DNA from: a virus
Virus record (IMG/VR): IMGVR_UViG_3300032401_000690
Location: 32,001 to 96,000 of that record
Length of the DNA stretch: 64,000 bases
Direction: 5' to 3' (one strand)
Shown: positions 3,715 through 32,652 of the stretch, one piece after another
How the letters are laid out: the number at the start of each line of letters is the position of its first letter
Position numbering within the stretch: the stretch's first letter is position 1
Notes under the pieces: generated by a model
Seen by the model: only the letters and a program-made list of their open reading frames with translations
Told to the model about the DNA's origin: nothing
Database searches by the model: none
Program-made: the position numbers and the translations under genes

Positions 3715-5223
3715 TTAAATGTAATAAAGGTTATTTTTTATTTTATCAAAATTTAATTTAATTAATGGTAATAAAATTTTATTGTATTCCATAATAATTT
3801 CCCCCATTTCTAAATCAATATTTCTTGTTTTAGATTCATAATGGTACGCAACACAATTACTACTAATAATGTTATTGTAATCTTTAATTTTAAATTGTAA
3901 ATTAAGTTCAACATCCTCCCAACAATATTTATAATTTTCACTAAACATTCCAAGTTTATTAAAAATATCTTTTCTAACCATCATTAAAGCCGCGGTATTA
4001 CCAACCACATTTGATTGATCACTAGTATAGTTAAAATACGACTCTTTATTTTTATGTGTTACACTTATTGATTTATTTGTTTGATTAACATATATAGATA
4101 TTCCATCATGTTGTAGTGTGTTATTTGGATAATGTAGTCTAGCACCAACTGTCCCAACTTTATTTGTTGTTTTAAAAATTCTTAACATTTCATAAATAAC
4201 ATTGTTAAGAACTTTAATATCGTTATTACAAAACAATAAAAATTCGTAATCATCATTTATGTGATTTTTAACAACATCGTTATTAATTTTTGCAAAATTA
4301 TAATAATCGTATTCAATTAATCTTATGTTGTTATTTAGTTGGATATAACTTTTTATGATTTCCTTTTCATCATCTGTTGATCCCGTATCCGCAATAAAAA
4401 TATCAAATAGTTTTTCATTACAATGTTCATAAAATGAATTAATACAATCCAATAACATTTCCACATTACCTTTTGTTGGGATTATAATTGCAACCTTACC
4501 AATATTTTTTAAAGGTTTTTCTTTAATTACCGGAACATAAACCGATTCAGGTTTTAAATCTAATGGTAATTCACTTCCCCATTTCTCAACGAACTTATCT
4601 TTGCTTTCCCAAAACTCTTGGTTTGGTCTACCAACAGATTGATGTGTTATCTCAAATGATGAGGTTACACCAATCTTAACTCCCGATAAGTAATTTGGTA
4701 CACAGAATAGATGATCGTAGAAGTGGAACTTACCAATGGTTGTATCAAACATATGATTACATTTTGTTTTATCAAACGACATAAACAAACCATCAATTGT
4801 TACAACTGGAACTAAAAAAGGTAATTTTGGAGAATATTTACTTAAGAATTTTTTTTGACCATCAGGGTGATGATAAACTTGCCCGACCATTGTTTGGTTC
4901 ATTCTGTCCCAATAAACTCCTGACTCGGGAAAATAACAAGAACCTGCTTTGCCTATAATACCATAGTCGGGATTATCCTCAAAATCTTTTAATAATTTTT
5001 TACCCCAATTTTTCTCAAGTTTAATATCGTTATGACAACAAACAATTATATTATAAATTGATTCAGTAATTCCGGAGTTATAAACATTTGATAATGAATG
5101 TTCATTATGATTTTCATATTCTAATATCTGAGGATCTTTAACCCCAACAGTTTGTAACAAATGTTGTCTAAATTTGTTATTATATTCTTGATCTTTATGT
5201 GTTGAATATATTATTGTTATCAT
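3715..5223 (-). CDS. Two-domain glycosyltransferase (GT-A/GT2 x2)
   Basis: N-domain CCHNDI...IDGLF...FHFYD; C-domain IIIPT...DTGSTD...FCNND...EDVEL...HYES. Confidence 0.8.
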   Translation of the reverse strand: MITIIYSTHKDQEYNNKFRQHLLQTVGVKDPQILEYENHNEHSLSNVYNSGITESIYNIIVCCHNDIKLEKNWGKKLLKDFEDNPDYGIIGKAGSCYFPESGVYWDRMNQTMVGQVYHHPDGQKKFLSKYSPKLPFLVPVVTIDGLFMSFDKTKCNHMFDTTIGKFHFYDHLFCVPNYLSGVKIGVTSSFEITHQSVGRPNQEFWESKDKFVEKWGSELPLDLKPESVYVPVIKEKPLKNIGKVAIIIPTKGNVEMLLDCINSFYEHCNEKLFDIFIADTGSTDDEKEIIKSYIQLNNNIRLIEYDYYNFAKINNDVVKNHINDDYEFLLFCNNDIKVLNNVIYEMLRIFKTTNKVGTVGARLHYPNNTLQHDGISIYVNQTNKSISVTHKNKESYFNYTSDQSNVVGNTAALMMVRKDIFNKLGMFSENYKYCWEDVELNLQFKIKDYNNIISSNCVAYHYESKTRNIDLEMGEIIMEYNKILLPLIKLNFDKIKNNLYYI

Positions 5224-5522
5224 ATCCCAGTACTCCCGAATCCTTTCTCTCCTCGGTCTTTATTGTTTATGTTATCAACCTTTGTTAATTTAATCCACTT
5301 ACCTGAAACCACGGGTGAAATAACTGCTTGTGCGATTTTCTGACCTTTTTTAATTATAACATTATTTTTTGTTGTATTAAATAGTATAACTTGAATTTCT
5401 CCTGTATATCCACAATTATGTATTAGATGGTCATTACAAAAAAAGTTATGATTATTAGATACCGTAATATCATAAGTTTGGTTTTTTGATTTTGAGATTT
5501 TTTTTATTTTAGTTGTTTTCAT
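5220..5522 (-). CDS. dut: Split-intein C-fragment (36 aa) fused to dUTPase C-extein
   Basis: Basic IntC with YDITV..NHNF...IHN then +1 Cys; extein CGYTGEI (motif III), KIAQ (IV), RGEKGFGSTG (V). Confidence 0.92.
   Translation of the reverse strand: MKTTKIKKISKSKNQTYDITVSNNHNFFCNDHLIHNCGYTGEIQVILFNTTKNNVIIKKGQKIAQAVISPVVSGKWIKLTKVDNINNKDRGEKGFGSTGI
5415..5522 (-). mobile_element. Split intein IntC coding segment
   Basis: Blocks F/G ending His-Asn (Asn codon 5415-5417) before the Cys codon at 5412-5414. Confidence 0.88.
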
Positions 5523-6393
5523 TTATAAAAGTTTTTAAATCATTAACACTATAAAATATTTTATAGTTTTTATATATCTGTTTTGTATAATATTCCTTAA
5601 CGTCAACCTCTTCAGTATTCCACCCCTTCATTTCAATAATATAGGATAATCCGTTATTAAATTCAACCAAAAAATCAGGAACATAGTGTCTATTTATGTC
5701 GTTATAAAAATATTTTATTCTAATCCCATGTTTATTTGTCCATGTTTTTACTAAAGTAGAGGAATCGAATAATTTCATAGACTCTAATTCGTAAGAGGAT
5801 GCGTACATAAAAATTTCATTATTTTTTGAAGTATATTTACCGGTCTTATATTTATTAGATTGATTACTGATTATTCCATCGGCATATAGTTGAGATATTT
5901 TTTTAGACATATTTTCTCTATATTCTAATGATTTCTCACATCTTCCGTCGTTTAACGACTTTTTTATTGATTCTATTGTTTTTTCTCTATACTCATTATT
6001 TTTCCACTTTTCTTTTGACGTTTTAGATATTTTTTCAATTCTTTCGTCAGATATTACCCATTTTTTAAACTCTTCCGACGATTTCCAATTCGTAAATCCA
6101 GAAAAAATTTCAGGAGTTTCCTTATGAATTTTTTTAATCTTTTCAGACATACTTTTCCTAAATTCAGGATTTTTATGTGTTATATTTCTAATTTTTATTT
6201 GTTTGTCTCTATAGTCGGGGTCTGACCAATTTTTTTTTGATCTTTCCGATATTTTTTTTAACTCATCATTTGATTTCACTTGAGAACCTACAAACATTAA
6301 TTTATAGTCCGAACTATTCATTTTATGTTCAAATTTTAAGTGCTCAACAATTGAACACTTTTTTTCCACACCACAAATTAAACATTTCACCAT
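5509..6393 (-). CDS. Free-standing putative homing endonuclease (TnsA-like PD-(D/E)XK C-domain with NUMOD3-like repeats)
   Basis: YASSYE...YVPDFLVEF...IIEMKGW; N-terminal CxxC..H..H; repeated basic helices; lies between the two dut halves. Confidence 0.75.
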   Translation of the reverse strand: MVKCLICGVEKKCSIVEHLKFEHKMNSSDYKLMFVGSQVKSNDELKKISERSKKNWSDPDYRDKQIKIRNITHKNPEFRKSMSEKIKKIHKETPEIFSGFTNWKSSEEFKKWVISDERIEKISKTSKEKWKNNEYREKTIESIKKSLNDGRCEKSLEYRENMSKKISQLYADGIISNQSNKYKTGKYTSKNNEIFMYASSYELESMKLFDSSTLVKTWTNKHGIRIKYFYNDINRHYVPDFLVEFNNGLSYIIEMKGWNTEEVDVKEYYTKQIYKNYKIFYSVNDLKTFINENN

Positions 6394-6431
6394 AATACCC
6401 CTTATCTATATTGATAAATAGTATGCTGGTG

Positions 6432-7124
6432 TTAAAAAATTATGATTTCATCGTTTTCGGTTAAATTTTTTGCCAACTTAATCCCGTCTTTAGTGTAAAC
6501 CTCACTATTAAGGGTAACCTCAAGAATTCCATGTTCGGTGTCAATTAATAATATTTCTTGGACTCCAGTATCAAAAATGGATGATATGACATCTTTCTCA
6601 ATCTCTAAAGAATCTTCATTAAATGAATAAACGATATCCCCAATCCTCAGTTCTTTGATTGTCTTATCTCCGTCAATGGTTAATATCTTCATGTTTTCAG
6701 AAAAACAATCCACCGTCCCCGGAGAATTTAATACCATAAGCCCTTGTTTTAAAGCCAAACCACTCTTAGGCCTCACCTGTACCTCATACCCGTCAGGAAT
6801 ATCAATATGTAACCCCGTTGGAATTAATGATCTACCAAACGATTCTATTTCAATTTCTTCAGTTGAAAACAAATCAAATCCAGAATCTGTTGGGTAAGCA
6901 TATGATGGGTCAATAGAATCAACGTTGGATTGAGAATACTCAACTTTCATTTTTTGTTCAAAGTTTGCCATATCTCGTTCAAGTTCGGCAACATCAACAC
7001 CAAAAATATCCATTATGTTTTGGTAGTCAGGTTCTTCATCACCAAACATATCCTCAAGTTCTTGGAGATTTTCTAGTTGATTAAGTAAGTCCCCAAGATT
7101 TTCTTCTTCTTCCTCGTTAATCAT
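6432..7124 (-). CDS. dut: dUTPase N-extein fused to split-intein N-fragment (91 aa)
   Basis: DSGFDL (motif I), RPKSGLA (II), GTVD (start of III), then intein block A CFSENMKILT..GDK.IKEL.IGD.VYS. Confidence 0.92.
   Translation of the reverse strand: MINEEEEENLGDLLNQLENLQELEDMFGDEEPDYQNIMDIFGVDVAELERDMANFEQKMKVEYSQSNVDSIDPSYAYPTDSGFDLFSTEEIEIESFGRSLIPTGLHIDIPDGYEVQVRPKSGLALKQGLMVLNSPGTVDCFSENMKILTIDGDKTIKELRIGDIVYSFNEDSLEIEKDVISSIFDTGVQEILLIDTEHGILEVTLNSEVYTKDGIKLAKNLTENDEIIIF
6435..6707 (-). mobile_element. Split intein IntN coding segment
   Basis: Cys1 codon at 6705-6707; HINT N-terminal pattern ending G.KLAKNL..NDEI then stop. Confidence 0.88.
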
Positions 7125-7845: not shown

Positions 7846-8679
7846 TTAATTATTTTTTATTTTATCTACAACTTCCCACCCTTTATTTTTTCCATAAGAT
7901 TTCAAAGTAGTAACACTAACTAATAGGTTATTTTTTTTTACGTAATCTTTAAATGAATTATAACCTAAAAAATTTAAAATATCACCTTTAGGTGTTTTTA
8001 TTATCCAAATCATTTTATTTGATTCAGATTGTTTTTTCTTTGATAACTCACTTCTTTTATACCCAACCTTACTTATTGACATTTTTTTTCTTATGTCTTC
8101 ATTATATTTTTTACCTTTATTTGGTGATGGAACCCCTTTTTTAATTTTAGATAATTTTAATTTAGTTTCATCATTCATAGGAATTCTTTTTTTACCTTTA
8201 AGTGACTCGCTTATTTTTTTTCTTGTATTGTCACTAACAATTCTACCTTTAGATGTTTCACTAATTTTTTTTCTAAAATTTTCAGACATTTTTAACCCCC
8301 TATTCCATCCACCTAAAGTCCTATTTTGTTTTTTCGCAGTTTCGGACATTTTAAGTTTTGTTTTACTACTATGATTTTTCCCAAACATAGGAGATCCCCC
8401 ATCACCACCATTGGTTAAATTAACCAATTTAAATCCCCATACTTTAAATTGAGATATCCAATACATTTCAACCTCATTTGAGTCTTTATCGTCACATACA
8501 TCTAAAATTTCTATAATAATTTTTCCCCCATTTAATAAAGTATTATTAATCCATTTTTCTTTATATGTTTTTTTATTTTTACTTTGATTTATATGTGCAG
8601 AGTATCTTTTATTTATTGATTTAGTTTTACCAATATAACGAATTTTAATCTCATCACTAAGTGTGTAAATATATGTCAT
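7846..8679 (-). CDS. GIY-YIG homing endonuclease with NUMOD3 repeats
   Basis: YIYTL...RYIGKT..R...H, E..WI, NLTNGGDG, repeated KKISE/KMS motifs. Confidence 0.88.
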   Translation of the reverse strand: MTYIYTLSDEIKIRYIGKTKSINKRYSAHINQSKNKKTYKEKWINNTLLNGGKIIIEILDVCDDKDSNEVEMYWISQFKVWGFKLVNLTNGGDGGSPMFGKNHSSKTKLKMSETAKKQNRTLGGWNRGLKMSENFRKKISETSKGRIVSDNTRKKISESLKGKKRIPMNDETKLKLSKIKKGVPSPNKGKKYNEDIRKKMSISKVGYKRSELSKKKQSESNKMIWIIKTPKGDILNFLGYNSFKDYVKKNNLLVSVTTLKSYGKNKGWEVVDKIKNN

Positions 8680-31293: not shown

Positions 31294-32652
31294 ATGCCAC
31301 ACACAATAGAAATAACAGGAGCAACCGGAACACCACCATATTCAGTATATGTGTGTGATTCAACATTCACGTATTGTTATGTAGTAACAGGATCAACAAT
31401 GATCCCCCCAACATTTATCTTTGATGTTCCATCACCATTAGATGTTGCTTCTTCAGTTATTGTTAAAATTGTTGATGCGAATGGTTGTGAAACGTTTGAA
31501 CCATATTCTTGTCCTCCGACACCAACACCAACACCAACAATTACACCAACACCATCATCAACACCAACGGATCTGTGTTATTGTTTAATGGCAGTTAATT
31601 CGTCTATGGTTGCCGGTTCGTTTGATTATATTGATTGTGATGGTGTTTTACAAAAAAATATACCAGTACCAATTGGTGTGACGTATTATGCGTGTGGTTG
31701 GGCACCTACCAATTTGGTTAATGTGAGTGTTGGAATTGGGAACTTATGTTCTTTGAGTAGTTGTGTTCCCCCATTACCAAGTATGTCGGCAACACCTACA
31801 CCTACACCAACACCTACACAAACACCATTACCTGTTGCCTTTGTAAGTCTTTGGAGAACATCAAATACGTCAGCAGGATCAAGTACAAGTACTCAAGTAA
31901 CATTACCGTTAAACTCGTCAGGAACATATAACTTTGTTGTTGATTGGGGTGATGGTGGTCCAACAGACACAATTACCGTTTGGAATGATCTTGCAACAAC
32001 ACACACATATGGAGTATCTGGTGACTACACAATTACAATTACGGGAATTATAAATGGATTTAGGTTTAATAATGTTGGTGACAAATTAAAACTATTAAAT
32101 GTTACACAATGGGGACCACTTAATGTTGGTAATCTTGGTAATTATTTTAGAGGTTGCTCAAATTTAGATTTAAGTAGTGTTTCGGATGTTTTAGATATGG
32201 TTGGGACAACTAATTGCATTGAGTTCTTTAGAGGTTGTAGTTCATTAACATCAATAAATAATTTAGAGTTTTGGGATGTATCGTCAGTAATATTTATGAA
32301 TGGTATGTTTAGTCAATGTACTACGTTTAATCATAATATCTCAACTTGGAATGTATCTTCAGTAACAAATATGAATAGTATGTTTGTTGTAAGCACATCA
32401 TTTGATCAAGATCTAGGTTCGTGGGATGTTTCATTAGTAACCACTATGTTATTAATGTTTGGTTCGGCAACGTTATCAACACCAAATTACGATTCACTTT
32501 TAAATGGTTGGGCATCACTCGGAGGTTCATTACAAAGTGGTGTATCGTTTAACGGAGGAAATTCTGTTTATACGATTGCAACATCCGGTGTTAGTAGAGT
32601 ATACCTTACTGGTACCAAATTATGGACAATAAGTGATGGTGGTGGAATTTAA
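31294..32652 (+). CDS. Surface/virion protein with PT linkers, PKD-like domain and DUF285/BspA-like repeats
   Basis: VDWGDG...HTY..SGDYTITI (PKD); WDVSSV..M..MF repeats. Confidence 0.75.
   Translation: MPHTIEITGATGTPPYSVYVCDSTFTYCYVVTGSTMIPPTFIFDVPSPLDVASSVIVKIVDANGCETFEPYSCPPTPTPTPTITPTPSSTPTDLCYCLMAVNSSMVAGSFDYIDCDGVLQKNIPVPIGVTYYACGWAPTNLVNVSVGIGNLCSLSSCVPPLPSMSATPTPTPTPTQTPLPVAFVSLWRTSNTSAGSSTSTQVTLPLNSSGTYNFVVDWGDGGPTDTITVWNDLATTHTYGVSGDYTITITGIINGFRFNNVGDKLKLLNVTQWGPLNVGNLGNYFRGCSNLDLSSVSDVLDMVGTTNCIEFFRGCSSLTSINNLEFWDVSSVIFMNGMFSQCTTFNHNISTWNVSSVTNMNSMFVVSTSFDQDLGSWDVSLVTTMLLMFGSATLSTPNYDSLLNGWASLGGSLQSGVSFNGGNSVYTIATSGVSRVYLTGTKLWTISDGGGI

Follow-up and report, generated by a model that had tools for sequence, protein, structure and literature searches.

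We analyzed a 64,000-nucleotide (nt) stretch of virus DNA, referred to here as the window (IMG/VR record IMGVR_UViG_3300032401_000690, positions 32,001 to 96,000), in which a gene for dUTPase (dut) is interrupted by the two halves of a split intein with a nuclease gene between them. The element occupies positions 5220-7124 on the minus strand and consists of three open reading frames (ORFs) in three different frames. It is very probably a mobile "fractured gene" cassette lodged in motif III of the active site of a phage dUTPase, and the sequences suggest that the dUTPase halves are most likely repaired by protein trans-splicing.

The interrupted dUTPase gene and its intein halves

An earlier note on this DNA had proposed that dUTPase motif III is broken between GTVD and CGYTGEI, and the ORFs, both junctions, and a divided Pfam match bear this out. 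All parts of the element lie on the minus strand. The N gene (6432-7124, 230 amino acids, aa) reads ...LMVLNSPGTVD, then CFSENMKILT...NDEIIIF and a stop, ending 91 aa after Cys1. Its N-extein (6708-7124) comprises dUTPase residues 1-139, an acidic extension of about 64 aa followed by motifs I-III, and its last residue is the conserved Asp of ...NSPGTVD. The N-terminal intein half (IntN; 6435-6707, 91 aa) starts at Cys1 and is followed by the stop codon at 6432-6434. A spacer of 38 nt (6394-6431) separates this stop from the ATG of the free-standing nuclease gene (5509-6393), which encodes 294 aa. The C gene (5220-5522, 100 aa) reads MKTTKIKK...NNHNFFCNDHLIHN and then CGYTGEIQVILFN...GFGSTGI. 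Its first 36 aa form the C-terminal intein half (IntC; 5415-5522, MKTTKIKK...YDITVSNNHNFFCNDHLIHN), which ends in ...HLIHN before CGYTGEI. The C-extein (5220-5414) supplies Cys+1, dUTPase residues 141-203 (GYTGEI..., motifs III-V, ...GFGSTGI), and the stop codon. The IntC start codon lies 14 nt inside the 3' end of the nuclease gene, whose stop overlaps the IntC start. The N gene thus ends in a 91-aa acidic IntN, the C gene opens with a 36-aa basic IntC ending in HN, and a 294-aa nuclease ORF separates them, all as the earlier note had described.

The window comes from a large uncultured phage and belongs to a 144-kb virus record estimated to be 49% complete, and relatives are found on contigs of up to 318 kb. 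Of 16 distinct intein pairs compared, 12 keep the layout with the nuclease gene between the halves. Because it recurs in many independent metagenome contigs, it is neither chance nor an assembly error, and among metagenomes the dUTPase split-intein arrangement is a common one, not a rarity. In public annotation the half-genes are called "dUTP pyrophosphatase" or are nameless, and the nuclease is a "hypothetical protein."

The Pfam dUTPase profile PF00692 matches both half-genes above its cutoff of 22 bits, covering residues 71-131 of the N-extein (E 2.8e-9, 37.3 bits) and scoring higher on the C-extein (E 2e-14, 53.9 bits). Profile positions 4-64 fall on the N gene and positions 71-129 on the C gene; these are consecutive, indicating that the two genes carry successive parts of one domain. 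The N-extein (139 aa) and C-extein (64 aa) add up to 203 aa, and intein-less alleles have 202-204 aa. Further, the N-extein is 94-99% identical to the N-terminal part of intein-less alleles of 202-203 aa. Residues 67-202 of P0033, an intein-less allele of 203 aa, align with the solved trimeric dUTPase 8y1q (E 1e-35), and the alignment includes motif III, G-T-V/I-D-x-x-Y-x-G-E. The insertion point is immediately after the Asp of this motif, between G-T-(V/I)-D and x-x-Y-x-G-E. We take this residue to be the catalytic Asp of established dUTPase enzymology. The position that follows it (+1) is variable, being A, N, or S in solved dUTPases. When joined, the exteins hold the full motif set of trimeric dUTPases, with the residues of motifs III-V visible in the sequence. 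The acidic N-terminal extension of about 64 aa (6933-7124, minus strand) lies outside the PF00692 match, and relatives keep the pattern DY..I...G.D...LE..M.

The two intein halves are oppositely charged: IntN has a net charge of -12 and an isoelectric point (pI) of 4.2, and IntC has a net charge of +4 and a pI of 9.7. By phmmer, IntN matches the Npu DnaB mini-intein (4o1r, E 6.5e-5) and also the Ssp DnaB mini-intein. A profile built from 15 diverse copies of IntN matches the Spl DnaX mini-intein 7cfv (E 3.3e-8, chain residues 5-91), and the IntC profile matches residues 106-137 of the same structure (E 1.3e-7) as well as gp41-1 (6qaz, E 3e-7) and NrdJ-1 (8ubs). Since the two profiles match opposite ends of 7cfv, the split falls between blocks B and F, as is usual. 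IntC also matches Pfam Intein_splicing (E 1.1e-4), at the C terminus of that profile.

Residues C1, T65 (the block B Thr), G13, S28, N30, and E37 are invariant in the 15 diverse copies of IntN, as are D18 (the block F Asp), the penultimate H35, and the terminal N36 of IntC. Blocks F and G of IntC read YDITV..NNHNFF...LIHN. Two of the 15 copies have Ser in place of the block F His and read NNSNFF (L035:5088-5198 and L104:3378-3488). At +1, 15 of 16 diverse loci have Cys; the exception is L044, with Ser at this position and NFFAN in place of NFFCN (L044:1739-1846). Cys1 is therefore invariant and the +1 residue is Cys or Ser, as in class-1 inteins.

A related IntN/IntC pair splits a helicase-like gene (L004:3422-5351), whose N half ends ...TLMVDE before Cys1. 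This IntN is 34% identical to the dUTPase IntN and has the block B His; its halves are 46 nt apart, with no endonuclease gene.

The sequence of the spacer is kept across diverged loci (11 aligned) as CACC..ATACTATTTATCAATAnAGATAA..GGGTATTATGGTG, with a TATTTAT motif and an inverted repeat, TTATC-N6-GATAA. The predicted fold of the hairpin is weak (-1.6 kcal/mol), and a promoter scan gave a count of sigma-70-like sites equal to the shuffle expectation. The spacer may function as a promoter or in the control of translation and be carried along with the nuclease gene.

Empty alleles, selection, and the nuclease

The same locus is found without the cassette in an IMG/VR contig (L003), which has the same upstream exonuclease and downstream glycosyltransferase genes and an intact 202-aa dut (...NSPGTVDQGYTGEIQ...). 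The DNA of L003 and the window is collinear as far as GGGACGGTGGAT, and collinearity resumes at GGATATACAGG. Relative to the empty site of the L003 type (...GGGACGGTGGATCAAGGATATACAGG...), the window contains an insert of 1293 bp that runs from TGT (Cys1) to AAT (Asn), and the next codon changes from CAA (Gln) to TGT (Cys). Among 129 related proteins, 104 consist of the N-terminal part of dUTPase followed by IntN, all with a GT(V/I)D-CFS junction. About 30 of the related proteins are intein-less with Gln at +1, and other empty alleles have Asn or Ser there. The presence of Cys at +1 in occupied alleles, as opposed to Gln, Asn, or Ser in empty ones, would be expected only of inteins that make use of the +1 nucleophile. 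One intein-less protein of 204 aa (P0119) has Cys at +1 (GTVD-C-GYTGEV), which may be the scar of a precise cassette loss.

We estimated ratios of nonsynonymous to synonymous substitution rates (dN/dS) for each part of the element, taking medians from eight loci. These are 0.15 for the N-extein core, 0.14 for IntN, 0.20 for the nuclease, 0.13 for IntC, and 0.22 for the C-extein; all five parts are under purifying selection, and none is decaying. Synonymous divergence (dS) between the window and locus L001 is 0.39 for IntN, 0.36 for the nuclease, and 0.32 for IntC, as against 2.1 for the N-extein and 1.2 for the C-extein. Similarly, in several alleles IntN is 95-96% identical to that of the window and the extein core only 60-68% identical, with the reverse pattern in others. 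Cassette similarity so far above extein similarity indicates that the IntN-nuclease-IntC unit moved between diverged dut genes in one piece, and such movement as a unit is what homing predicts. Individual decayed copies are also seen. In the cassette at L019:542-2246 an internal deletion leaves a nuclease of 277 aa and the C-extein is down to about 20 aa, and in P0031 IntN is truncated.

The nuclease begins with a C2H2 zinc finger (CxxC...H...H), continues with helical repeats, and ends in a PD-(D/E)xK domain (about aa 156-294). Residues E202, P239-D240-F241, and E254-x-K256 are invariant in 30 aligned homologs, and the N-terminal C4-x2-C7...H18...H23 is near-invariant in the same set. An AlphaFold2 (AF2) model of the nuclease has a predicted local distance difference test score (pLDDT) of 87. 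Its best structural match is TnsA of Tn7 (1t0f; Foldseek E 2e-4; VIA Z 10.1, root mean square deviation [rmsd] 3.8, 128 residues), and the next matches are VRR_NUC, Bax1, and Hjc, all of them PD-(D/E)xK enzymes. Members of the family have weak Pfam matches to Tn7_TnsA-like_N, DUF1064, and Phage_endo_I, and at the N terminus to ROS_MUCR. Judged from the model and these matches, the nuclease is predicted to be a TnsA-like PD-(D/E)xK enzyme with a zinc finger and not a GIY-YIG enzyme. Indeed, Pfam gave no GIY-YIG or Vsr match for it. Vsr and I-Bth0305I are not among the structural matches listed, although the nuclease may be distantly related to them within the superfamily. The best profile matches in a PDB sequence search with the nuclease (odorant-binding protein, E 0.01) were set aside as chance matches of its Cys/His-rich N terminus.

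Homologs of the nuclease fall into 77 clusters, none with an informative name in any source. Distant homologs (31-35% identity) in L106 and L108 again lie between split-dUTPase halves, here of other lineages. In L107:2004-3367, an intact intein-less dut of 147 aa is followed 53 nt downstream by a free-standing nuclease homolog (31% identity). Homologs are thus found both inside split dUTPases and beside intact dut, tying the nuclease family to dut with and without an intein. The L107 arrangement could be a precursor of the fractured state, or it could belong to a distinct lineage that targets dut. Other free-standing phage genes encode the nuclease domain by itself; one example lies between primase-like and SbcD-like genes. 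In the window, a second homing-type nuclease gene, free-standing and with GIY-YIG and NUMOD3 domains (7846-8679, minus strand, 277 aa), is found a short distance upstream of the exonuclease/dut block and no more than 1.5 kb from the intein-borne nuclease gene.

Proposed trans-splicing and the missing block B histidine

In the mechanism that we propose, two polypeptides would be made, dUTPase(1-139)-IntN and IntC-dUTPase(140-203). The acidic IntN and basic IntC would associate to form one HINT domain, which would join Asp139 to Cys+1 by class-1 trans-splicing, proceeding through an N-S acyl shift at Cys1, transfer to Cys+1, cyclization of the terminal Asn, and an S-N shift. The product would be a 203-aa dUTPase with the junction peptide ...SPGTVDCGYTGEIQ..., its sole difference from intein-less alleles being Cys for Gln at the junction. 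The nuclease would be a homing enzyme of the free-standing type, with helical repeats that would bind DNA, and would presumably cut intein-less dut alleles during co-infection; the entire IntN-nuclease-IntC unit would be copied into the broken allele as it is repaired. We infer here the splicing itself, the target of the nuclease, and catalysis of the N-S acyl shift without a block B histidine.

The last of these concerns the one class-1 signature from which the dUTPase inteins depart. In block B, T-L-N-S of IntN aligns to T-G-N-H of 4o1r and 7cfv, placing Ser at the His position. Of the class-1 motif T-x-x-H, the Thr is invariant and the His is replaced, by Ser or Thr in 35 of 35 close copies and 15 of 15 diverse ones. 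A phmmer search with IntN against 1.8 billion representatives returned 301 matches, and 139 of the best 150 were placed and classified. Within this set, all 38 dUTPase-hosted relatives lack the block B His (S/T in 31, K/Q in 7), and 100 of the 101 relatives in other hosts have it. All 38 dUTPase-hosted representatives sit behind the motif III Asp, which is their -1 residue. A second dUTPase subgroup has P-x-x-K (or T-E-N-Q) in block B (P0277, P0296, P0298, P0301, P0306, P0325, and P0287). In a quick tree of IntN relatives the S/T group forms one clade, with a support of 91 in the Shimodaira-Hasegawa-like approximate likelihood ratio test (SH-aLRT), and the K/Q group stands apart; this tree does not resolve the branches between the two groups, and the His may have been lost in a single event or independently.

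The same 38 representatives are all N-halves, in which IntN reaches the end of the protein or stops within about a dozen residues of it, and no contiguous dUTPase intein is found among them. These sequences hint that the dUTPase-hosted intein family may always be split. A search for contiguous inteins among proteins longer than 403 aa brought up nothing beyond a fusion of ADP-ribosylglycohydrolase with dUTPase and a HINT protein that is not related.

The block B His has been described as essential in many inteins, and natural inteins without it as a very small subset, the Tko CDC21-1 orthologs; the -1 residue has been shown to be capable of compensating (PMC6333167). A literature search on Asp at -1 in intein thioester chemistry returned nothing relevant. 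We also considered the extra His and Cys of IntC (NNHNFFCNDHLIHN) as a substitute for the absent block B His. Some members of the clade lack them: L071 has Val and L104 has Tyr in place of the extra His of HLIHN, and L044 has Ala in place of the Cys. Loss of the block B His may be an adaptation to the neighboring Asp at -1. A broader reading, which we hold tentatively and would stop just short of calling probable, is that the dUTPase-hosted split inteins are a distinct and widespread class-1 variant that is efficient without the His, has its first step re-tuned to the -1 Asp, and travels with an undescribed homing endonuclease family of zinc-finger, helical-repeat, TnsA-like architecture. Such re-tuning could be substrate-assisted or could act via the T-x-N-S/T (or P-x-x-K) block.

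Several observations weigh against the proposed mechanism. The histidine that is absent here is the catalyst of the first step in most inteins, and splicing could be slow, conditional, or absent owing to its loss. An Asp at -1 can favor N-terminal cleavage over splicing, as is known from intein expression systems. Further, the individual Pfam intein matches fall under their gathering thresholds, and only one copy of the nuclease is present in the genome record, itself about 49% complete.

The missing histidine is also the starting point for two of the alternatives. Its absence throughout the dUTPase-hosted clade is consistent with halves that dock without splicing, the intein serving as a pair of affinity domains and the enzyme working or failing as an unspliced heterodimer. 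A precedent is Aeh1 NrdA, where the product of an endonuclease-broken phage gene is reported to be reassembled non-covalently (PMC3045599). A docking module, however, needs none of the splicing residues, yet Cys1, the block F Asp, the penultimate His, and the terminal Asn do not vary over deep divergence, 15 of 16 loci have Cys at +1, and occupied alleles have swapped Gln, Asn, or Ser for Cys at this position. In addition, a 127-aa HINT domain directly after the motif III Asp would probably block the active site. For these reasons we consider docking alone to be quite unlikely. Loss of the His across the clade, maintained under purifying selection, would also fit slow or conditional splicing that responds to redox state, temperature, pH, or substrate, making the cassette a post-translational switch on dUTPase, and a form of compensation that depends on the -1 residue and on other intein residues has been described (PMC6333167). 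Nothing positive points to any regulator, however, and the natural His-less Tko CDC21-1 orthologs are described as compensated rather than conditional (PMC6333167), leaving a switch of this kind unlikely.

A dut gene that is simply dead, broken by a selfish cassette in a phage that relies on the dUTPase of its host, would agree with the visible decay of L019, with its nuclease deletion and short C-extein, and of P0031, with its truncated IntN. Against this, the exteins of occupied alleles are under purifying selection (dN/dS of 0.15 and 0.22), PF00692 is covered over both halves with the motif III-V residues present, and the arrangement persists in alleles that are 53-99% identical, so that we regard a dead gene as highly improbable. 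Repair of the dUTPase by trans-splicing is the explanation that we prefer.

Relation to known systems

Fractured genes were defined in 2009 by Dassa, London, Stoddard, Schueler-Furman, and Pietrokovski (PMC2677866). The hosts in that study are gp41, IMPDH, DnaE, NrdA, NrdJ, DNA ligase, terminase, and one unknown protein, and the endonucleases are GIY-YIG or Vsr-like (PMC2677866). The earlier note had named gp41, NrdJ, and IMPDH as phage genes with this layout, in agreement with the published list. The dUTPase element resembles these systems in having three genes in the same order on one strand and opposite charges on the intein halves. The dimensions are also alike: the spacer before the endonuclease gene is 38 nt here and 27-51 nt there, IntN is 91 aa compared with 88-105, and IntC is 36 aa compared with 33-54. 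In both, the host is a phage enzyme of nucleotide metabolism and the insertion is at an active-site motif. In contrast, dUTPase is not among the hosts listed there, the nuclease with its zinc finger and TnsA-like PD-(D/E)xK domain is neither GIY-YIG nor recognizably Vsr-like, and the block B His, kept in the 2009 inteins, is absent from the dUTPase-hosted clade.

The earlier note had further suggested that dUTPase is undescribed as an intein host. In keeping with this, our literature search, which did not extend to supplementary tables or subscription journals, found no paper on a split intein in dUTPase. Papers that mention both an intein and dUTPase do not pair them in titles or abstracts, and those examined place inteins in other genes. 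Among GenBank phages (INPHARED), no record covers at least 80% of the N gene. A Bacteroides phage DAC16 match that extends across the junction was rejected as an ordinary intact dUTPase (...GTIDSDFRQE). The layout has thus been known since 2009, and what appears to be new relative to the literature searched is, from the sequences, the dUTPase host, the type of nuclease, and the block B chemistry.

Natural split inteins are tools for protein ligation, labeling, and cyclization, and fast or orthogonal ones are scarce. The dUTPase-hosted family offers a new and diverse set of about 38 representatives (at 50% identity, from the best 150 matches) whose halves are pre-defined by nature. Further, a His-less clade behind an Asp makes testable the old question of how extein and intein share the activation of the first peptide bond.

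Compared with gp41-1 (6qaz), NrdJ-1 (8ubs), the Npu and Ssp DnaB inteins (4o1r and 1mi8), and the Spl DnaX intein (7cfv), the dUTPase intein shares the HINT signature, Cys1, and the block B Thr, as well as block F YD..V..NHNF and block G HN, and it is likewise split between blocks B and F, where an endonuclease is usually inserted. It differs in block B, where those inteins have T-x-x-H and the dUTPase intein has T-x-N-S/T, and in its -1 residue, which is the motif III Asp of the host. The Tko CDC21-1 orthologs, as natural class-1 inteins without the block B His, are a precedent for compensated catalysis (PMC6333167). These are contiguous, archaeal, and located in a helicase, and are reported to have a bulky Leu at -1, with compensation by a residue of the intein (PMC6333167), whereas the dUTPase inteins are split and phage-borne, with Asp at -1 and S/T (or K/Q) at the His position.

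The nuclease has a restriction-endonuclease-like fold and the E/PD/ExK motif in common with TnsA (1f1z and 1t0f) and with other PD-(D/E)xK nucleases, including the homing endonuclease I-Ssp6803I. Its identity to TnsA is only about 15%, and TnsA is without such a zinc finger and helical repeats. The contexts also differ, TnsA being part of a transposon and the nuclease being encoded by a free-standing gene in a split intein or beside dut. That one nuclease family occurs both beside intact dut and within the split intein is relevant to the 2009 model, according to which genes become fractured through the invasion of an intein by a free-standing endonuclease gene.

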